A DNA stretch of 64,000 nucleotides from IMG/VR virus record IMGVR_UViG_2645727901_000008; one strand, given 5' to 3'. Positions 2,222 to 59,485 of the stretch are shown piece after piece. This DNA comes from a virus (lineage: Duplodnaviria > Heunggongvirae > Uroviricota > Caudoviricetes). The first letter of the stretch is position 1, and the number at the start of each line of letters is the position of its first letter. Made by a program: the position numbers and the translations under genes. Under the pieces are notes generated by a model. That model saw nothing but the letters and a program-made list of their open reading frames with translations, was not told where the DNA came from and did not search any database.

Positions 2222-2875
2222 CTATCCCTTCTTGAAATCAAAGTTGCTTGCGATGGCCTGGAAGGTGCCTCCAGCCTTGAAATCAATATTTTCGTCGGCT
2301 GTCACAGTAATGTTTTTGCCATTAACGCTGATGTTATCGGCTGATTTGACGTTAACACTCCCTCCCGCATTCACTACTACATCAGCCGGACCAATGATGT
2401 ATATCTGCCCTGATTCATTCATTCCAATCCTTGAGCCTGCTGCCGTATTCGCTATTTCATATCCACCGCCAGCCGTTCGCACTTCGAGCACATTGTTGCG
2501 GTGAATCACGAAATCTTTTGTCGCCGAAAATTGCGGGCGGGGAGGCGCTCCGTCTACTTCTGGTGGCGTCCAGCCGCTACCATTGCCTGACGCCTCCGGC
2601 GCGACGTTTGGTACTCCTCCAGGCGCATCCTGAGCTGCGCCAACTATCATTGGGCGTCTGGTATCAATTCGACCATTAACATCCAGATAAGGAAACTCTA
2701 CCCATACCAGGTCGCCTTTTACTGTAGGTACAAACGCGTTACCTATGGGTAACAGGTATTCTGCCCAGGGTAGATCGTCATCAGGAACGCCATTCCAGTC
2801 TGGTAAAACACGGACCTGAGCACGCATAAGCCCTGCCGGGTGCACAGTTCCAACAATTTGCGCTCTACGCTTCAT
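2222..2875 (-). CDS. Baseplate central spike / gpV-like protein (OB-fold plus beta-helix repeats)
   Basis: 217 aa; C-terminal repetitive VNAGGSVNVKSADNISVNGKNITV pattern typical of phage baseplate spike proteins. Confidence 0.5.
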   Translation of the reverse strand: MKRRAQIVGTVHPAGLMRAQVRVLPDWNGVPDDDLPWAEYLLPIGNAFVPTVKGDLVWVEFPYLDVNGRIDTRRPMIVGAAQDAPGGVPNVAPEASGNGSGWTPPEVDGAPPRPQFSATKDFVIHRNNVLEVRTAGGGYEIANTAAGSRIGMNESGQIYIIGPADVVVNAGGSVNVKSADNISVNGKNITVTADENIDFKAGGTFQAIASNFDFKKG

Positions 2876-3852
2876 TTGTTCGGCACTCCTAATATCATTC
2901 GTGTTGTGTAGCCTACGCGGTCTTCAAAGTGCGCAACATTTTTTACTATCAGCTTGCGGGGCATTGATTCATCAATGCGGTTTTCCTGGTCATAGCGGTA
3001 TACGATAATCTCTATTACCATTCCCGGTTTTATATCCGGATTGCCTGCGACTTCTATATCCATTTTGGGGACGAGAGACAGCTGCATATTGCGAAGAGTT
3101 TCCATATCAGAATCGGATATATAACGCACTGGGAGTGAGCTATCGCCATATTCGACGTAGCCATCGGTCATGGAATACCCAACAAAACGATATTGATTCT
3201 TTGCTGTTGTCGCATGTTCCTGTTGGAGTAGGCGCATTTTGGACAAAGTGTATTCTGCTTTAGGGTTATTCCCCTCGTAGGTAAATGATGGCGTTTGCTT
3301 CATCAGATCAGCCAGGGTGTAAAAGTTAAATTCCCCACGGCATACCCAACATAATGCACCTTTGTCTCGCGCTATCTGCGAGAGCATTTTTGACGGTTTG
3401 TCACCGGCATTCAGATGATATGTAACTGCGCGTTTTAGCACGCTGCTGGTAATTTTAAGCTTGCCGGAATATGCCTTGAATATAGCGTCTGGTGTTTTGT
3501 TGGTATGTAAATTTGTGCGCGGGGAGGGGATCTTAAACCTGCGCACGTCTTCACTGACAGCAATAACGGTAACAACATCACCAGCCAGCATTGCAGACGT
3601 AACAAAGAAGTCTGTTTTAAAAGTGCCTGCATTACCGTTTGGATCGCCCATTTCAGCCACCAGCGATGCACCGTATTTGGCTTTCCAGTCATCAATTACG
3701 GTGCCGGTAGCGTCATGAATTTCCAGTTTTAGCAAAGGGGCTTTGAGGCTGGTTTTTTCTACATATACTGCGGTAAAAATCCAGTCTCGTGGCACTTTGT
3801 TATCGTTAATGAGCACTGACTGTAGAAAATATTGTTGTAACTCCTGGGCCAC
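2872..3852 (-). CDS. Hypothetical phage protein (326 aa), possibly structural
   Basis: Long ORF tightly packed with neighbours on the same strand; no motif recognised. Confidence 0.45.
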   Translation of the reverse strand: MAQELQQYFLQSVLINDNKVPRDWIFTAVYVEKTSLKAPLLKLEIHDATGTVIDDWKAKYGASLVAEMGDPNGNAGTFKTDFFVTSAMLAGDVVTVIAVSEDVRRFKIPSPRTNLHTNKTPDAIFKAYSGKLKITSSVLKRAVTYHLNAGDKPSKMLSQIARDKGALCWVCRGEFNFYTLADLMKQTPSFTYEGNNPKAEYTLSKMRLLQQEHATTAKNQYRFVGYSMTDGYVEYGDSSLPVRYISDSDMETLRNMQLSLVPKMDIEVAGNPDIKPGMVIEIIVYRYDQENRIDESMPRKLIVKNVAHFEDRVGYTTRMILGVPNK

Positions 3853-3855
3853 TTA

Positions 3856-4623
3856 TCACCCCATAGATATCGAGGTTTCGGTAATAATACGTTTTGCGTC
3901 CAACTCCCATGCTGTGATCACGTCTGCAATCACACTTATCGGCGCTTGTGTGGCATAAATACGCTCTTCTCCAATTGGTGCCGAAACATCCGTAAATCCG
4001 ACTTCTTTGGCATCCTGTATCGAGCAAATCAGCGGGACCGGGACACGAACAAGGTGAGTGGTTGCTTCAAATTGTGTACCTGTCATCAGGCGAAGCCGTG
4101 CGCCCAGCGAATTACACATCAGACTCATGGTCGCTTTATCAGTTGACATTAACGTAACGTCATACGTCAGAATGGCCTGGGTGTATTCCAGTTCTGCTAA
4201 AGGCATTCCGGTATCCGGTTCGCAAAAACTGGCTACTTTTTTGCGGTCAATCTGCTGATCATCGTTGATATAATTGATATCCATAGTGCGTGAGATATTG
4301 ACCAGGGGGAGAGCATCCCGGTTAATGTTCTGGTTTTCAGGTTTTCTCCCTTGCCCGGCATTTGCGCGACGAACTGCTTTAAGAAACTCGATCGCATTGT
4401 CGAAACGGGCCACATAGACACGCTCTGCTGGTGGACGATTCAGGAATGACGCAAAGCGTTTTTCTTCCGGCGCGGGGGCCACCAGTAAGATATCAGAAAA
4501 GATATTGCTGATTAGCGTAGCAAACGCGTTATCCACGTTTTCAAAGCCCGTGGTCTGGAATTTCCCTGTGCGTGAGGTTTGCCATTCACCTGTTCGCGCC
4601 AGGAGGGTTTTATTTGAAGTCAT
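3856..4623 (-). CDS. Hypothetical phage protein (255 aa)
   Basis: Long ORF in operon context; no motif recognised. Confidence 0.45.
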   Translation of the reverse strand: MTSNKTLLARTGEWQTSRTGKFQTTGFENVDNAFATLISNIFSDILLVAPAPEEKRFASFLNRPPAERVYVARFDNAIEFLKAVRRANAGQGRKPENQNINRDALPLVNISRTMDINYINDDQQIDRKKVASFCEPDTGMPLAELEYTQAILTYDVTLMSTDKATMSLMCNSLGARLRLMTGTQFEATTHLVRVPVPLICSIQDAKEVGFTDVSAPIGEERIYATQAPISVIADVITAWELDAKRIITETSISMG

Positions 4624-5488: not shown

Positions 5489-5536
5489 ATGGGACTAAAG
5501 TGCTTTACATTGTCCCATATTGGGACTACTATACTT
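5489..5536 (+). promoter_or_regulatory. higBA promoter/operator region with nested inverted repeats (ATGGGAC...GTCCCAT, GTCCCA-TAT-TGGGAC) and a TATACT -10-like hexamer
   Basis: Inverted repeats read from sequence directly upstream of the higB RBS. Confidence 0.4.
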
Positions 5537-5556
5537 TCAGAGAGAAGGAATCTGTG

Positions 5557-5859
5557 ATGAAAATAATTTCGGTAAAAACACTAAGGGATTTCTGGGCGAA
5601 GAATCCCGATGCAGAACAGCCATTAAAGGCATGGGTTGATGAAGCAACAAAGGCTGACTGGAAAAATCCGGCTGAGATCAAAGAACAGTACCGGACAGCC
5701 AGCATCCTTAAAAACAGGCGCGTGGTGTTCAATATTAAGGGAAATGATTACAGGTTAATTGTCGCAATTGCTTATCAGCGAGGATGGATGTTCGTTAAGT
5801 TTATTGGAACACATAAGGAATACGATGCCATTGAAGCGGATACAATAGAACTGGAGTAA
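5557..5859 (+). CDS. higB: Type II toxin HigB (RelE-superfamily mRNA interferase)
   Basis: VFNIKGNDYRLIVAIAY...FIGTHKEYD aligns with E. coli HigB VFNVGGNELRVVAMVF...VMTHKEYD; ATG at 5557 with GAGAAGGA RBS. Confidence 0.8.
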   Translation: MKIISVKTLRDFWAKNPDAEQPLKAWVDEATKADWKNPAEIKEQYRTASILKNRRVVFNIKGNDYRLIVAIAYQRGWMFVKFIGTHKEYDAIEADTIELE

Positions 5860-5862
5860 ATC

Positions 5863-6222
5863 ATGAACATTAAACCTATCCGTACAGAACAAGATTATGA
5901 GGCCGCACTGCGTGCGGTCGAACCGATGTTCGATAACGAACCGGAAATGAACACACCGGAAGGCGATTTCTTTGAAGTAATGTGCCTGCTCATTGAAGAG
6001 TACGAGAAAAAGCATTACCCAATTGAGCCACCATCACCTATTGAAGCCATTAAATTCCGTATGGAACAGCAAGGGCTGACCGTGAAGGATCTGGAACCGG
6101 CGATTGGTAAGTCAAATCGAGTTTACGAAGTGCTTAATGGGACACGAAATTTGACGTTACCTATGATTCGTCGTTTACATGCCCAGTTTGGTATTCCACT
6201 GGAAAGTCTGGTTGGTGTTTAA
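5863..6222 (+). CDS. higA: Antitoxin HigA (XRE-type HTH)
   Basis: C-terminal HTH pattern GLTVKDLEPAIGKSNRVYEVLNGTRNLTL resembles HigA; starts 4 nt after higB stop. Confidence 0.8.
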   Translation: MNIKPIRTEQDYEAALRAVEPMFDNEPEMNTPEGDFFEVMCLLIEEYEKKHYPIEPPSPIEAIKFRMEQQGLTVKDLEPAIGKSNRVYEVLNGTRNLTLPMIRRLHAQFGIPLESLVGV

Positions 6223-10949: not shown

Positions 10950-11567
10950 TCATTTTTGTCGGATCTTTTCCAGCATATTTAATTCATTATCACTTTCTGC
11001 TGCTGAGACGGTTGGCCTCACATTTCCGAAATATTTCCTGTGAGACTCATGACTTATGTATTCACCGACAGTTTCATTCTTGAATATACGAATTTGACAT
11101 ATGCGAGATCCAACAATAAGTTCTACAGGGCTATTCCCATGATTAAATAACTCTAAAGATATACAGCCTCTGTACCCTGGTTGTATCATGGTATTTAATG
11201 AAAGACCAAGCCTTGTATAGCTGCTTCTGGACAATACATCAGCGTAGCAATCTGGTGGCAAACAAACATATTCTAATGTTGTTGCCAGTACCACTTGATT
11301 CGGGTAAACAATGAATCTATCCCCAAGATCTCTCCTTGTTTCCTGGAAAAATGTTCTGATTGGTTGATGAGTATCATTGTTTTTTGATGGAATTAACTCT
11401 ATTGACGGCTTCCTTGTCATAATAGACACTAAAAAATCGTAACCAAGTCTAAGGTCTATGGTGAAGTTCCCAATTTGGTTTTTATTTAGAAGAGGTTCAA
11501 TGAACAACGACTCAGGTTCTTCTGATTCATAATATTGCAGCAATTCAGCTTTGCTTAGGAGATTCAT
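10950..11567 (-). CDS. dCTP deaminase-fold (Dcd/dUTPase-superfamily) protein
   Basis: IDLRLG, VYPNQVVLATTLEYVCLP, SSYTRLGLSLN and QPGYRGCISLELFNHGNSPVELIVGSRICQIRIF align motif-by-motif with E. coli Dcd as I recall it; ATG at 11567 overlaps upstream stop (ATGA). Confidence 0.65.
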   Translation of the reverse strand: MNLLSKAELLQYYESEEPESLFIEPLLNKNQIGNFTIDLRLGYDFLVSIMTRKPSIELIPSKNNDTHQPIRTFFQETRRDLGDRFIVYPNQVVLATTLEYVCLPPDCYADVLSRSSYTRLGLSLNTMIQPGYRGCISLELFNHGNSPVELIVGSRICQIRIFKNETVGEYISHESHRKYFGNVRPTVSAAESDNELNMLEKIRQK

Positions 11568-12637
11568 TGTGCACTCCATTTTTCAAGAATCATTACGTTT
11601 CGAATCGATTTTTCAACCAAATCATTTATAGTTTTTTCTATGGCTTCTTGTGACAACCCAGACCATATACCCGTAGGTTTTTCCCATTCAGAGCATAAGT
11701 ACTGCCAGCTGCTGTTAATAAAAGCATGCATTTCATTGTGGTCGCGAATAACAAAAGGACGCACATTATCAAAAGCTGATTTCACATCAAGCAAAGGTGT
11801 CGGCAATGTCAAACAAGGAGAAATAATCTGCCCACCATTATGTAAGGCTGATATCACAGCATTGAACATGCCAACAACTGGATTTTCCACTTTGTTCAAA
11901 AAGTCGCTTACAATTTTAACTCTATCTTCTGTGGATGGGTGAGTATAGCTTGCAGGATGAGAGCCAGCTAATTTGTATAAGAAATCTACCCCACTTTTTC
12001 CAATAAATTGGGCACTAAATAGATCTGCAAAATATTCTCTGCAATGATTTATCCAAATAACATCAGGTAGATTACTCCATTCTGGTCCAGGAAGTGTGCC
12101 TTTGTCCTTGGAACGATAGTTAAGACAGGCAAGCTCAGAAATACCTTTGCTAATATCAACGAAATGTCCCAATTCGTGATATAAAGGTATAGAGCATAAT
12201 GGTCGTCTTCTGTACATTTCAGGTAATGAAATCTGAATTAATTCGACATCGAATTTGACATTTAAAACTTCGTCAAATAAAGAATACAAATTCTTGTTTA
12301 CAGACTTAAAATAAAACCCATGCATATCTGGAGATAGGGCTGTGGTTATAAGTGTTTTTTCACTTATCCATTTTTTACAGGCATCATTTAAGCAATAGAC
12401 AATCTCGTAGGGAATTTTCTTTGTAGTACTGCCAGTGAAAAAATTAACTGCATCGGTGATAAAAAAAGTACAATCCGCAATTATTTTATCAGCAACATTC
12501 ACATGGTTTTCATAGAGCTTATCCACCGCTTCTTGTAGAACAGCAAGATATTCATGCATGTCTTTAGAAAAATAGGGAGATTCTGATATCTCCCTTAGCT
12601 TATTTCGAACTAATGTAAGTTGTGTAAATGCAAGCAT
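11564..12637 (-). CDS. HExxH zinc-metallopeptidase-like protein (357 aa)
   Basis: YHELGHFVD motif with downstream acidic/His residues; start ATG overlaps upstream stop by 1 nt. Confidence 0.5.
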   Translation of the reverse strand: MLAFTQLTLVRNKLREISESPYFSKDMHEYLAVLQEAVDKLYENHVNVADKIIADCTFFITDAVNFFTGSTTKKIPYEIVYCLNDACKKWISEKTLITTALSPDMHGFYFKSVNKNLYSLFDEVLNVKFDVELIQISLPEMYRRRPLCSIPLYHELGHFVDISKGISELACLNYRSKDKGTLPGPEWSNLPDVIWINHCREYFADLFSAQFIGKSGVDFLYKLAGSHPASYTHPSTEDRVKIVSDFLNKVENPVVGMFNAVISALHNGGQIISPCLTLPTPLLDVKSAFDNVRPFVIRDHNEMHAFINSSWQYLCSEWEKPTGIWSGLSQEAIEKTINDLVEKSIRNVMILEKWSAQ

Positions 12638-12942
12638 TAAATGTACTCTAATACATTCCGGGCCATTACGGGTTCTAACATATCTTCGCTAGTTACTTTG
12701 GTTAGCACCTGGGCGAGCGCCTTAGTGTGGCGTATCTCTACCGCGAGCGAGATGGACTCTCTGTGAGAAGGAATCTGTAATTGATCACCTTTATCTACAC
12801 TTAAGTTTGAGGCTTCTCTGATCACCTCATAAACCCGTAACTTTAACTGCTGTGACACTTCTTGTTGAGATGCTATAAGCTGAAGTACAGTCTTGATCAA
12901 CTTCAAAGAATCAGAAGCTTGCTGAGGAACCGCATAGAGCAT
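12637..12942 (-). CDS. Small helical protein (101 aa), first gene of the three-gene cassette
   Basis: ATG at 12942 with GGAGGGG RBS; coupled to the next gene. Confidence 0.5.
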   Translation of the reverse strand: MLYAVPQQASDSLKLIKTVLQLIASQQEVSQQLKLRVYEVIREASNLSVDKGDQLQIPSHRESISLAVEIRHTKALAQVLTKVTSEDMLEPVMARNVLEYI

Positions 12943-55281: not shown

Positions 55282-56964
55282 TTAATTGCTCATCACAAAT
55301 TTTGCAAAGTTTATTAACTGTTCTGGCGTCCAGTTTTCCGGATCGTCACCGGACGACAACGGCGCGGATTCGTACATACCATGCTCGTTGTTTTGCTCTG
55401 ATTCATTCGCCTTAAACTCTTTGATCATGGTGTTGAGAGTGTCATCGTCGATGTGCAACTGCTCAGTGAACAGATAACGCATAAACGCGTCGCTACCAGC
55501 CAGTTTCGGGTTGTTCTGGATCTGGTCCATAATTTGGGAGATGACAGCAACAAAGTTGGCGCGTGCATCCAGTTCTCGGTTTTCCTCTTCCTGGATAGCA
55601 GTGTTCATTGAGTTGAATTGCACGTCATAAGGGCGGTTTGTTTCGGTGTAAACCTTGCCGTATTTATAAGCGAGGTGAATGTCCAGAAGCCGATAAATAG
55701 TTCGCTGGGCGGCCTGTCTGATCCAGTTCGCACGCAATGCAGCCTGGATAGCAGTTTGCTGCCAGCCGCCTTCTCCAAGCCCTCCGCTCATCTGATCAGC
55801 CCAGCCAAGCATTGTTGCGTCAATGCCGAGGCTTGCAGCAAGCTGCCGGAGGTGAAACATAACGTCTTCGATACCACTGATATCTGCGGGTATGGATTGC
55901 GTATCAATGGTGATGCCGTTCTTCCCGTCTCCCATAACAGGTATCAGATGGTTAAGCACAGTCGGAATAGCGTTGGCATTAATCGACCTTTGCGCCACCA
56001 GGTCACTATGACGCTTCAATGCCTGGCTGACGCCACGCGTATAGTTCGCCGCATTAACCGGGTCCAGTGTGTTCGTCGTAAGAGCAATCAGGCGGTCAAT
56101 TTTGGCTGCATTATTTCGCGTTGATTTCAGCGCGGCGAGCGAAGCACATAAATTAAGGTAAGGTTCATAGCTGTATTCCAGGAATGAAGTTCCGTAATTC
56201 TGCGTCTCCATTAACGGCTTATCAGCCTGATCACTTAACAGTGAATACCCTTTTGTACCGTAGCTAACCGGAATAACCTTATGCTGCGGCGTCCAATACG
56301 GGTTTTTCATGGAAACAAGATTCCACGGTTCGGTTATTACCCTGCGCAAACTATGCGTATCCAGAATGTAATCACCACTAAAACCGACCAGCTGGCTACC
56401 GCGATAAAATTCCTGGACGAAGTGTGGAAGAGTGTAATAACTGGATTCAATGCCAGTTATCCCTCTGCCCTGTTCAGCATAAGGTCGGACATAAGACACC
56501 CCAAAGATCGCCATAATCATGGCCCATGAAGGAAGTCCGTCATTAATCATTGCCCCCAAATCAGCTGTTAACTCTTCACACCTACTTACCGCCTCGGCAT
56601 CGGAACCATCTTTTGGCGAAAGCATGAATGCCAGCCCGGTTTTCTTTGAAGGCGCAAGCGCATGTGCAATATGAATGTTTAAAGCCGTTGAGATAGTCGG
56701 GCTTTTAGCCATCGTTTCCAGGATGTTGTACTTTTGCAGGCGCTCGCCGGGCAGTTCAGCGGATAAAGAAATTGAATCTGCTGCACTCGTCATGCCATCG
56801 CTGTTGCTACCCAGGATGCCTGGACGTAAAGCGGACAGGCCGGAACGAGCAACGACACTATGCCCGCTCGTAAAAACGACCGGATCGGCGGGCGTAACAT
56901 CACCACCGTTGAAGGCTTTCTTCAATGCCGACAGAAAGCCTTTGTTTTTGTCTTTCGTTGCCAT
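55282..56964 (-). CDS. Portal protein-like (P1 Prt-like)
   Basis: 560-aa ORF at the head of a morphogenesis block; assignment by size and context. Confidence 0.55.
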   Translation of the reverse strand: MATKDKNKGFLSALKKAFNGGDVTPADPVVFTSGHSVVARSGLSALRPGILGSNSDGMTSAADSISLSAELPGERLQKYNILETMAKSPTISTALNIHIAHALAPSKKTGLAFMLSPKDGSDAEAVSRCEELTADLGAMINDGLPSWAMIMAIFGVSYVRPYAEQGRGITGIESSYYTLPHFVQEFYRGSQLVGFSGDYILDTHSLRRVITEPWNLVSMKNPYWTPQHKVIPVSYGTKGYSLLSDQADKPLMETQNYGTSFLEYSYEPYLNLCASLAALKSTRNNAAKIDRLIALTTNTLDPVNAANYTRGVSQALKRHSDLVAQRSINANAIPTVLNHLIPVMGDGKNGITIDTQSIPADISGIEDVMFHLRQLAASLGIDATMLGWADQMSGGLGEGGWQQTAIQAALRANWIRQAAQRTIYRLLDIHLAYKYGKVYTETNRPYDVQFNSMNTAIQEEENRELDARANFVAVISQIMDQIQNNPKLAGSDAFMRYLFTEQLHIDDDTLNTMIKEFKANESEQNNEHGMYESAPLSSGDDPENWTPEQLINFAKFVMSN

Positions 56965-57048
56965 GAATCACCGCGAATTGTTTCCAGTTTCGCGGCAGCA
57001 TAATCAGTATGTGATTTGATAGGAGAGTTTTATTGGTGCTGTTAATGA

Positions 57049-57381
57049 TTACTTACACGCTTCCCTGCCCACATAGTCAGCGATGGAACCACTTACAATC
57101 CCCCCCATTTTGGGATCAGGTTTTGAATTTTTCATCTGTTCAAGCGTCTCCCCAGAACCAAGATACTTCACTTCATTTGTCATGCAATTATATATTCTCT
57201 TCGAATATGCTGTCCCAGATGGGCCTTCCCTTTTTGTAATGATAGTTTTATATTCACCTTCACGACCAATATCCAGCACTGTATAAGTAGCTTTTGGATC
57301 AGAAGGGATTTTTATCTTATAGGGCGCAGCACAAACTGATGCAGAAGCTAATAAAGCACAAACCAGGATTATATTTCTCAT
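57049..57381 (-). CDS. Small secreted protein (AT-rich island)
   Basis: Signal peptide MRNIILVCALLASASVCAAP; AT-rich codons. Confidence 0.5.
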   Translation of the reverse strand: MRNIILVCALLASASVCAAPYKIKIPSDPKATYTVLDIGREGEYKTIITKREGPSGTAYSKRIYNCMTNEVKYLGSGETLEQMKNSKPDPKMGGIVSGSIADYVGREACK

Positions 57382-57425
57382 AACTATACTCCATGTTATA
57401 AATTATCAAAGCTAAGTAAGTAAAA

Positions 57426-57983
57426 CTAATCTGGATCAACAATAAGTTGTGAAACCTTCGCTGCAAGTCTTATATAGCGTTCAGCTTCATTTCTGGTGAT
57501 TTCAAAATCCAGAAAGTGCGCGGCTTCATTTCTTAGCGAGCGAAGCCGTTTTAACAGCAAAGCAGCGGAATCTTCAAGTTTTCCTTCTTGAATCAACCAG
57601 TCAATGAATAGTTCTGGATTCCGTTTCGGCTTTAACCCTCCCTGTATAAAACCAGAGCGCCCGGCAGCCTCCTCTACCATCAACCATGACTCCATAATAG
57701 CAGCTCTAGGTGAAAAATCAGCAATTCTCTCTAATTGTGCGATTTTATTTATATATTCAGAGTTATTATTACCATTGTTAATATTTTTATTCCCAACTGA
57801 TGCATCTGTTGCTAATACTTCTGCTGCGGTTAGTCCCGCATTAAACTCAGCTTCAGCTGCTCCAATCTTGAATCTACTCAGACGTACTATTAACTCCTTA
57901 ATATCAACCCCATACTTATTAACAAACCACACAAACACCAATGGCCATGCAAGAGCTGAAACCAAATCTGTAAATGATGACAT
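57426..57983 (-). CDS. Membrane-anchored protein with HEPN-like Rx4H motif (AT-rich island)
   Basis: N-terminal hydrophobic helix; C-terminal LRSLRNEAAHFLDF fits Rx4-6H. Confidence 0.45.
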   Translation of the reverse strand: MSSFTDLVSALAWPLVFVWFVNKYGVDIKELIVRLSRFKIGAAEAEFNAGLTAAEVLATDASVGNKNINNGNNNSEYINKIAQLERIADFSPRAAIMESWLMVEEAAGRSGFIQGGLKPKRNPELFIDWLIQEGKLEDSAALLLKRLRSLRNEAAHFLDFEITRNEAERYIRLAAKVSQLIVDPD

Positions 57984-58108
57984 CGGTTATCCTCATTCAT
58001 TATATTCTCAGCTAGTTTACATATTATTAAACAGGAACAAAAATGAATTATGCGCCCATCTTCAGATATGTTATGAACGCACAGAAAGAGCATTAAGTTA
58101 CATTGATG

Positions 58109-59485
58109 TTACCCAACAGAGGTTGACTCAAACATAGAAAAAATTAACCCTTTACCTTCGCCAAACTCAGTCTCAATTTCATCAGAAACGGCAGATAAAA
58201 TGCTACGCAGATCGACATCTCCGCCGCCGAACATATCGCCTAACGCTTGTTGTTGGTGAATAAGTTCATCGTTAATTTTTTGCGCCAGTTTCTTGAAAGC
58301 GGCCCCCATTCGCTTAGCGCTTCGGTTGTTGGCAACAATAAACAGAGCAAGCGCTTCTGCTTCCGGAGTGCTATCTCCAAACAATCCACGCTGTGCGATC
58401 ACCTCTTCTACTGCCTGACCGTTATCTTTTGCTTCACGAACAAGGTTAATTGCTTCCTGGAGTGCTGCTATCGCCTGTGTATCCAGGCCATTAACCTGCT
58501 CTATACCGTCCACTAAGCCTGTTACTGCGTCATGGTGAGCGTCGCCAGACAGCGACTGCATTTGCGCAAAATCGCTGGCTGCCGTATTTAATGCGGTCAG
58601 GATATTACGCATTTCCGGATCTGGCTCTTCCGACACTAGCCGAACAAGCCTTTCATCCTTGTACGCTTTGGCAAAAATTGCATTCTGGATGCGATCGATA
58701 AGCTGTTTCGTGGGACGCCCATCGGCAGTAAGCAAGCCTGCCGTCGCTGTATCGCCAATTTCGCGCAAAAACGCACGAATAAACGCATCATTGGACCGCG
58801 CCAGCAGATTTCCATCATCTGAAGGATTAAATAGCGCCATGACGCTCTCAGTGAGAAATTGCGCATCCGCATACGCTTTTTCACTTGCTGCCATCTCTTG
58901 CAGATCGCTAATGTTTGAATCGCGGGCAAATTGAGCGCGGTCTACATCTGTGAGTCTTTCTCGCACTAGTACGGGCATAGACATTTGCGAAATTTCGTCA
59001 GGATTCAGACCAAACTCTTTCGCATGGTCGATCAGGTACTGGCGATACTCATCCGCCTGTCCTTGCTCATAGGCACGCCAGATACCCATACTCCTTCCGT
59101 TGCCGGATTCAACAACGTTGTCCGGACCAACTATCGGCGCTCCGTGGCTGCTCATACCGGAATCCGTTAATTGTGCCGGGCGTAAATTGGAGGCAATACG
59201 GTTAACCTGGAGTTTGCTGGATAGCCGGGTACGATCTCGTGGTTGGAGTTCTTCCGGGAAGGCCGGGTTAATCATACCGTCAAGGTTGTTCGAAATGATC
59301 AGACTGCTGGCATCAACGACCTTAAAAGCCGTCTTTACCTCTGCACCTTTGCTGGTGACTACGTAGCTACTTCGCCCCAGGCGTGTTTCTTTCCTCTCTA
59401 ATGAAGAAACCAGAGCAATGACGCTGTTAATATCTGCGGCCTCGGAAAGCGCAGAAGTAACTGATTTGTTCAAAATACACTCCAA
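58109..59485 (-). CDS. Hypothetical virion-associated protein (458 aa), in the DarA-operon neighbourhood
   Basis: Long ORF downstream of the DarA-like gene. Confidence 0.45.
   Translation of the reverse strand: MECILNKSVTSALSEAADINSVIALVSSLERKETRLGRSSYVVTSKGAEVKTAFKVVDASSLIISNNLDGMINPAFPEELQPRDRTRLSSKLQVNRIASNLRPAQLTDSGMSSHGAPIVGPDNVVESGNGRSMGIWRAYEQGQADEYRQYLIDHAKEFGLNPDEISQMSMPVLVRERLTDVDRAQFARDSNISDLQEMAASEKAYADAQFLTESVMALFNPSDDGNLLARSNDAFIRAFLREIGDTATAGLLTADGRPTKQLIDRIQNAIFAKAYKDERLVRLVSEEPDPEMRNILTALNTAASDFAQMQSLSGDAHHDAVTGLVDGIEQVNGLDTQAIAALQEAINLVREAKDNGQAVEEVIAQRGLFGDSTPEAEALALFIVANNRSAKRMGAAFKKLAQKINDELIHQQQALGDMFGGGDVDLRSILSAVSDEIETEFGEGKGLIFSMFESTSVG

Follow-up and report, generated by a model that had tools for sequence, protein, structure and literature searches.

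HEPN domains carrying a membrane anchor were catalogued by Anantharaman, Makarova, Burroughs, Koonin and Aravind (Biol Direct 2013, 8:15; PMC3710099). They described a WP-TM HEPN group, exemplified by gi 153825856 of Vibrio cholerae, in which the HEPN domain is predicted to be cytoplasmic, and proposed for it a role in stimulus-dependent RNA degradation. The same transmembrane (TM) module is reported to be fused to the receiver domains of two-component systems (PMC3710099). We found no other paper in the open literature searched discussing membrane-associated HEPN proteins of the WP type. RAZR (PD-T7-4; Nature 2026, PMC13017515) combines a zinc finger sensor with a DUF4145 domain, an Arg/His-dependent ribonuclease (RNase) that executes abortive infection (Abi) upon binding of phage portal or Gp77 rings. 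HepS from the Gifsy-1 prophage (Nature 2026, PMC13043305) is a HEPN anticodon nuclease that works as a single protein and is activated by phage tail-tip proteins. Here, we analyze a small AT-rich island in a 64,000-nucleotide viral sequence, IMG/VR record IMGVR_UViG_2645727901_000008, hereafter referred to as the window. The island encodes a 185-aa membrane-anchored HEPN protein and a 110-aa exported protein, corresponding to orf24 and orf23 of Escherichia phage D6. On balance, we consider it probable that the island represents a moron-type cassette whose two cargo genes are independent of each other and that the HEPN protein is a latent, trigger-activated, membrane-tethered abortive-infection RNase.

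Distribution and boundaries of the island

Judged by its sequence, the window is a D6-like phage-plasmid: region 56900–58200 shows 99.2% identity to D6, a P1-related phage-plasmid. Using a 4.2-kb query running from the portal gene to ddrB, we identified 120 D6-like plasmids in Escherichia coli, Salmonella, and Shigella. The whole stretch, island included, is present in 14 of these. About 100 match in two pieces, lack roughly 1.06 kb, and have an empty site. In one such plasmid, pEHP91H1-2 (locus L020), homology to the window stops at 57017 and restarts at 58128, and 64 bp separate the portal gene from the ddrB-like gene. In three other plasmids, CP057742.1 and two sister plasmids, an IS200/IS605 tnpA-tnpB element occupies the slot (2319–4008 in the CP057742.1 locus). 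As this element stands in place of the island, the ddrB-prt junction is a site of recurrent insertion that exists in at least three states: empty, island, and IS200/IS605. Among 72,556 plasmids, island DNA has no match outside D6-like plasmids. Of the 5,426 complete E. coli genomes, 9 contain it, in each case whole, with at least 99% identity and on a plasmid of roughly 90 kb. P1 and P7 match the flanking genes only, at 64–67% identity and in a different gene order. Two Salmonella entries matching at 88–94% identity, pSa1423-90k and NZ_MK356558, were left out of the evolutionary inference. The annotation of the former is fragmented into short open reading frames (ORFs), suggesting a low-quality sequence, and the latter was set aside on a like suspicion.

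The two island genes have a G+C content (GC) of 0.40 and a third-position value (GC3) of 0.31–0.32, against 0.49 and 0.47–0.53, respectively, for the flanking portal, pro, ddrB-like, and ddrA-like genes. With a GC of 0.386 versus a 64-kb mean of 0.475, the island as a whole falls in the lowest 4% of segments of its size. It is bordered on one side by the portal gene (55282–56964; Portal_T4-like, similar to P1 prt) and pro, and on the other by the ddrB-like gene (ddrB-ParB domain, E = 1.9e-42), a ddrA-like gene, and darA (DarA_N and DarA_C; DarA_N E = 9.7e-40). The right junction (58109–58127) cuts into the final codons of the ddrB-like gene. The allele next to the island ends in ...FSMFESTSVG, whereas the empty-site allele (2230–2270 in the pEHP91H1-2 locus) has a different tail that is 8 residues longer. 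The boundary search revealed no flanking direct or inverted terminal repeats, and therefore no mechanism involving a transposase or an integrase can be proposed.

A preliminary description of the window, made from its letters alone, had placed two ORFs in an AT-rich island, suggested to be a horizontal insertion, between portal and DarA-operon genes. Both ORFs exist on the minus strand, and their composition and flanks are as described. Because the island is patchily distributed among the plasmids and P1 and P7 match its flanks only, its genes are not core genes, and horizontal insertion is supported. Variable presence between conserved genes in close relatives and a deviant composition, the two marks of a moron, are both observed. 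Most likely, the island was acquired once, as a moron-type cassette, by a sub-lineage of the D6-like phage-plasmids.

The two island proteins

D6 gp103 bears the RefSeq name DUF4145 domain-containing protein. The HEPN identity of the 185-aa protein was thus already implied, and its architecture was catalogued in 2013. The AlphaFold2 model contains five helices (residues 74–90, 92–113, 123–132, 138–156, and 164–182) in the all-alpha helical bundle typical of Pfam clan CL0291, and about 107 residues of the protein align to HEPN crystal structures. Within the LRNEAAH motif, R151 is conserved in 93/93 family members, N152 in 89, and H156 in 90, and Rx4H is found in all 145 diverse representatives. 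The Arg is followed by a polar residue, as in HEPN Rx4-6H motifs. Another helix, SPRAAxxExWxxxE (residues 91–104), is invariant in the family alignment. Among 93 relatives, Pfam matches were obtained to DUF4145 (84 proteins, best E = 2.8e-8), HEPN_Swt1 (45), and HEPN_RiboL-PSP (11). Given the conserved motifs and these matches, the HEPN assignment is secure, with LRNEAAH as the catalytic signature of the family. Other databases were less informative. For both island proteins, sequence searches of the PDB gave nothing significant, the match of the HEPN protein to HepS (9oij) reaching only E = 0.18, and PHROGs lists both as families of unknown function. Fold comparison against BFVD returned borderline matches only. 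The single NCBIfam match, of 12 bits, was to the N-terminal part of a type I restriction endonuclease, a known place of DUF4145. A word-indexed search yielded 95 homologs. A profile search of 1.84 billion cluster representatives retrieved 528 proteins at E ≤ 1e-30 and 3,933 at E ≤ 1e-10; the best 150 matches are nearly all 180–210 aa long and align end-to-end.

Residues 3–21 form a predicted TM helix (Kyte-Doolittle 19-mer 1.63; Wimley-White octanol −8.95 kcal/mol), as called from hydropathy scales. Across the family, the Kyte-Doolittle value of the N-terminal segment is at least 1.6 in 80% of members and at least 1.2 in 97%, and the WP signature is present in 91/91 full-length members and in 145/145 diverse representatives. 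In 100% of family members, the 15 residues following the helix carry a more positive net charge than those preceding it. The N-terminus is therefore predicted to lie outside and the HEPN domain in the cytoplasm, leaving about 2–5 residues periplasmic. Residues 1–73, comprising the TM and juxtamembrane helices, lack cysteine. The juxtamembrane helix is conserved and is followed by a variable Asn-rich linker leading to the HEPN domain. The D6 protein thus has the single N-terminal TM helix and the strict Trp-Pro of the WP-TM HEPN group, to which it belongs by every sequence feature compared, the comparison being with the published description. A Vibrio member of the family (L075) is 30% identical to it. 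The membrane helix, the HEPN-type Rx4H motif, and the HEPN fold anticipated in the preliminary description, as well as the signal peptide of the partner (see below), were all recovered.

At about 85 loci, we clustered the two ORFs (60 aa or longer) closest to the HEPN gene on either side, and this revealed no conserved neighbor: no family occurs at more than three loci. By this result, the HEPN protein appears to stand alone, with no conserved partner or antitoxin among ORFs of this size, smaller ORFs and RNA antitoxins being outside the screen. No minimal nucleotidyltransferase (MNT) gene, the antitoxin gene of HEPN-MNT pairs, lies next to it in D6, where the neighbor encodes an exported protein. 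The neighbors observed are of kinds typical for mobile and conflict-related DNA and include AbiTii, a HepT-like HEPN protein, DUF4747, an integron-type integrase, a P4-like primase, an AAA_25 replication protein, and prophage genes. The Salmonella homolog lies in an island next to a P22-like prophage, with an integrase fragment and a 468-aa protein of unknown function.

Several of these loci have features of their own. In Salmonella (L002–L005, 6660–8066, minus strand) and in L024, the HEPN homolog is followed on the opposite strand by a gene for a 468–470-aa protein that has no Pfam match and contains the Rx6H-like string RNWASAAH. By sequence, this protein could be another divergent HEPN or Abi protein. 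L024 is labeled Chryseobacterium, yet its HEPN homolog shares 58% identity with the D6 protein, the same degree of closeness as for the homolog of Salmonella arizonae; the label may reflect contamination or misassignment. Approximately 120 bp downstream of the HEPN homolog, Serratia, S. arizonae, and one viral contig encode a 174–175-aa protein of unknown function. Serratia locus L007, identical in all other respects, lacks the gene for it, which is thus a variable companion gene.

The 110-aa protein (gp104) is annotated as hypothetical in RefSeq. Its N-region is strongly hydrophobic (Kyte-Doolittle 15-mer 2.63), and such a segment precedes the first conserved residue, P26, in 99% of the family, as expected for a conserved Sec-type signal peptide. 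The mature protein (92 aa) is basic, with an isoelectric point of about 9. Two cysteines are conserved, C66 in 107/108 members and C109 in 108/108, and most likely form a predicted stabilizing disulfide bond. The predicted beta-sheet fold is similar to those of Protein E and PseM, a resemblance of fold only. The protein matches no family in Pfam, PADLOC, or NCBIfam. In particular, the Adhesin_E (PF16747) hidden Markov model matches 4 of 108 relatives weakly (best E = 0.0099), and the window protein has no Pfam match at E ≤ 1. It lacks a lipobox, and a lipobox-like string occurs in only 6 of the 108 relatives. Two candidate relationships were rejected: the match of the family profile to PDB entry 6xi1 had no passing stretch and was taken as compositional noise, and the DUF2511 (YebY-like) label of one Xanthomonas relative is not backed by a Pfam match in any of the 108 members.

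Relatives of the 110-aa protein are encoded on 122 viral contigs. At 37 of the 80 loci analyzed, the gene lies directly upstream of a same-strand ORF of tape-measure size. In Enterobacter and Serratia prophages, it occupies a moron slot before the tape-measure gene, near items such as a HicA toxin gene, and its place in a Pseudomonas prophage is after a cI-like repressor gene. It behaves as an independently mobile prophage moron encoding an envelope protein. Our best guess, based on localization signals and prophage gene position only, is that orf23 is an envelope-acting lysogenic-conversion or superinfection-exclusion factor.

Function of the HEPN protein and rival explanations

The analogy with RAZR and HepS, together with neighborhoods rich in mobile elements and Abi genes, makes an Abi or exclusion function, as suggested in the preliminary description, plausible. 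In the mechanism that we propose, the single N-terminal helix would anchor the HEPN protein in the inner membrane, the N-terminus facing outward and the C-terminus inward, and the protein would remain latent there in the lysogen. A phage- or envelope-derived trigger would shift HEPN protomers so that they make up a composite active site; metal-independent RNase activity from such a dimeric site is a trait of the HEPN superfamily. Once active, the RNase, with its intact R-N-x3-H residues, would cleave cellular tRNA, rRNA, or mRNA. Translation would halt, the competing phage infection would be aborted, and clonal carriers of the plasmid-prophage would be protected. The orf23 product would be exported via its Sec signal peptide and would act on its own in the periplasm or envelope.

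Several observations weigh against this proposal. The window protein scores 20.0 bits against DUF4145 (PF13643; E = 7e-4), below the gathering threshold of 23.1. Apart from marginal HEPN noise, the PADLOC-DB v2 models matched neither the protein nor its relatives, and the PADLOC scan of the 110-aa protein was equally negative. Our literature search found no experiment on any member of either family. Some HEPN homologs have a plain chromosomal setting, in Serratia for example between nrdG and an arsP-type gene, which a housekeeping or regulatory role would also fit. The promoter consensus scan picked out a weak site, ATAACA-16-CATAAT at 58074–58047 (minus strand), promoter-like sites were no more numerous than in shuffled sequence (5 versus 3.9), and the scan for terminators was negative. 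On these grounds, expression in the lysogen is no more than presumed, and the two genes may simply depend on read-through from the late darA operon.

Some of these points would equally suit a stimulus-responsive RNA-processing or regulatory enzyme responding to envelope signals and modulating host physiology, as proposed by Anantharaman et al. for the WP-TM group. The very large size and uniformity of the family, its spread over many phyla with some copies in stable chromosomal positions, the reported fusion of its TM module to receiver domains (PMC3710099), and the negative PADLOC scan are all in line with such a role. However, the gene is patchily distributed even among near-identical plasmids, and the family is frequent on prophages, satellites, and islands and beside Abi-type genes. 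Moreover, the characterized stand-alone DUF4145 or HEPN proteins of mobile elements are abortive-infection effectors. We therefore regard a non-defensive function as rather unlikely.

The preliminary description had considered that the two genes could form one module. In a true pair of this kind, the periplasmic 110-aa protein would serve the membrane HEPN effector as its sensor, regulator, or antidote. Within D6-like plasmids, the gene arrangement is compatible with this view. The genes are adjacent and co-oriented, 44 bp apart with no terminator between them, each has a Shine-Dalgarno sequence (GAGGA for the HEPN gene and GGAG for the 110-aa gene), their composition is near-identical, and they are always present or absent together. 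This linkage is confined to the D6-like lineage. Among 91 genomic and viral loci encoding the HEPN family, only two, both D6-like contigs with 99–100% identity, also encode the 110-aa family, and among 80 viral loci of the latter the HEPN family is found on the same two contigs only. Each family is abundant alone in unrelated contexts. The partner is predicted to be periplasmic, whereas the predicted topology places only about 2–5 residues of the HEPN protein on that side. The two genes are not one conserved module, and a true two-component module appears distinctly improbable.

We rate as similarly improbable that the HEPN protein is an addiction toxin stabilizing the plasmid-prophage, with a small ORF, an RNA, or orf23 as its antitoxin. 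Many HEPN proteins are type II toxins (PMC3710099), phage-plasmids need stabilization, and a partner shorter than 60 aa or an RNA would be hidden from our neighbor screen, which also counts against the abortive-infection reading. On the other hand, neither MNT nor any other conserved neighbor accompanies the family, the window already carries a HigB/HTH pair, and about 100 D6-like plasmids persist without the island. An inert HEPN domain with a binding or regulatory role, like MtlR or the nucleotide-binding HEPN domains, is very improbable in view of the conservation of R151, N152, and H156 and of Rx4H in all diverse representatives.

If the proposed anti-phage RNase activity is real, it would provide a function for a very widespread family of membrane-tethered HEPN proteins, predicted in 2013 and absent from PADLOC-DB v2.0.0, the one defense catalogue checked, and would add membrane-based sensing to the soluble sensors of RAZR and HepS. 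A bolder extension, which we hold to be doubtful, is that the WP-TM HEPN family forms a large uncatalogued class of single-protein abortive-infection RNases with the membrane itself as the sensor. It is likewise a tentative idea that the Trp-Pro helix detects phage DNA injection, holin action, or depolarization and switches on RNA cleavage at the inner face. Should the protein have no phenotype, the island would be an ordinary moron. At the ddrB-prt junction, D6-like elements have a small three-state cargo slot. Such elements are common in livestock and human E. coli and Salmonella and do not all carry the same probable genes for competition between phages, and D6-like plasmids with and without the island offer a natural isogenic test system in E. 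coli.

Other features and comparison with known systems

The features of the island and the companion gene found at other loci are listed in table 1.

Table 1. Features of the island (window coordinates) and companion ORF at homologous loci (locus coordinates)
Feature	Position	Strand	Basis or remark
Accessory AT-rich island, 1110 bp	57018..58127	.	Between portal gene and 3' end of ddrB-like gene; boundaries by alignment
110-aa exported small protein (D6 orf23/gp104; RefSeq hypothetical)	57049..57381	-	
Predicted Sec signal peptide, residues 1-18, cleavage between VCA and A	57328..57381	-	Hydrophobic N-region; site by inspection
185-aa inner-membrane-anchored HEPN (DUF4145-type) protein (D6 orf24/gp103)	57426..57983	-	
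HEPN domain, residues about 74-182	57438..57764	-	Five helices in AlphaFold2 model
Predicted catalytic Rx4H motif, R151-N-E-A-A-H156	57516..57533	-	Codons read from sequence
TM helix, residues 3-21, invariant W13-P14	57921..57977	-	Hydropathy and family conservation
AT-rich 125-bp leader of HEPN gene, possible moron promoter	57984..58108	-	Sigma-70-like hexamers, GAGGA Shine-Dalgarno
174-175-aa companion ORF	L006, L008, L009: 6704-7231; L023, L105: downstream ORF		

Just three AT-rich patches of this kind are present within the 64 kb. The second, at 5500–6222 (plus strand), encodes a HigB-type toxin (5500–5859; PF09907, E = 4.9e-34) followed by an HTH_3 protein (5863–6222), and is probably a HigBA-like addiction or defense module of the phage-plasmid. 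The third, at 10950–12942 (minus strand), contains a dCTP-deaminase-like gene (10950–11579; PF22769, E = 1.3e-30) and, upstream of it, ORFs of 357 and 101 aa without Pfam match; it could be nucleotide-depletion defense cargo. Next to the island, a hairpin, CCGCGAA-N11-TTCGCGG (56971–56995, minus strand), lies upstream of the portal ATG (56964), with its end 7 nt away, and overlaps a likely GGTGA Shine-Dalgarno sequence. Both arms of the stem differ in the island-less pEHP91H1-2 (CCGCAAA/TTTGCGG), and the two changes compensate each other so that pairing is preserved. This sequence pattern is a hint that the portal gene has a conserved element acting in translation or RNA processing.

As a genetic object, the island resembles the prophage morons of lambdoid phages, such as lambda bor and lom, HK97 gp15, and the cor genes of phi80 and N15. 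These are also single genes or small cassettes of deviant composition between conserved phage genes. They vary from one relative to another, and their products are often envelope proteins that change the lysogen or keep other phages out. The similarity is one of genetic logic only, with no sequence or demonstrated functional relationship. The fold of orf23 recalls Haemophilus influenzae Protein E (Adhesin_E, PDB 3zh5) and Pseudomonas aeruginosa PseM/TdeM (PDB 9m3l; PMC12494544), with only 7–10% identity. Protein E is a lipoprotein adhesin, a modification for which orf23 has no signal. PseM, in which a disulfide bond links the sheet to a helix, has 159 residues when mature and builds its active site with the C-terminal helices (alpha5/alpha6) of a second monomer; the shorter mature orf23 protein lacks them.

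For the HEPN protein, the closest described relatives are the WP-TM HEPN proteins of Anantharaman et al., with which it shares the single N-terminal TM helix with a strict Trp-Pro, the C-terminal HEPN domain overlapping DUF4145, and the predicted cytoplasmic location of this domain. The 2013 description was computational and did not include phage defense, a phage-plasmid location, or a presence/absence polymorphism. A review also names a "HEPN-TM" system of phage-inducible islands, whose comparison with the D6 protein is limited to the negative PADLOC scan. RAZR is soluble and carries an N-terminal Cys4 zinc finger sensor; the D6 protein has a TM helix instead. Their motif spacings also differ, R146...H154 in RAZR versus R151...H156 in D6. 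HepS is likewise a prophage-encoded stand-alone HEPN nuclease, which defends the lysogen while the carrier phage escapes self-triggering, and the weak match mentioned above is local and lies near the Rx4H helix. However, HepS has no significant overall sequence similarity to the D6 protein and no membrane anchor: it is a soluble tetramer that recognizes the tail-tip proteins of siphoviruses and cleaves the anticodon loops of tRNAs.

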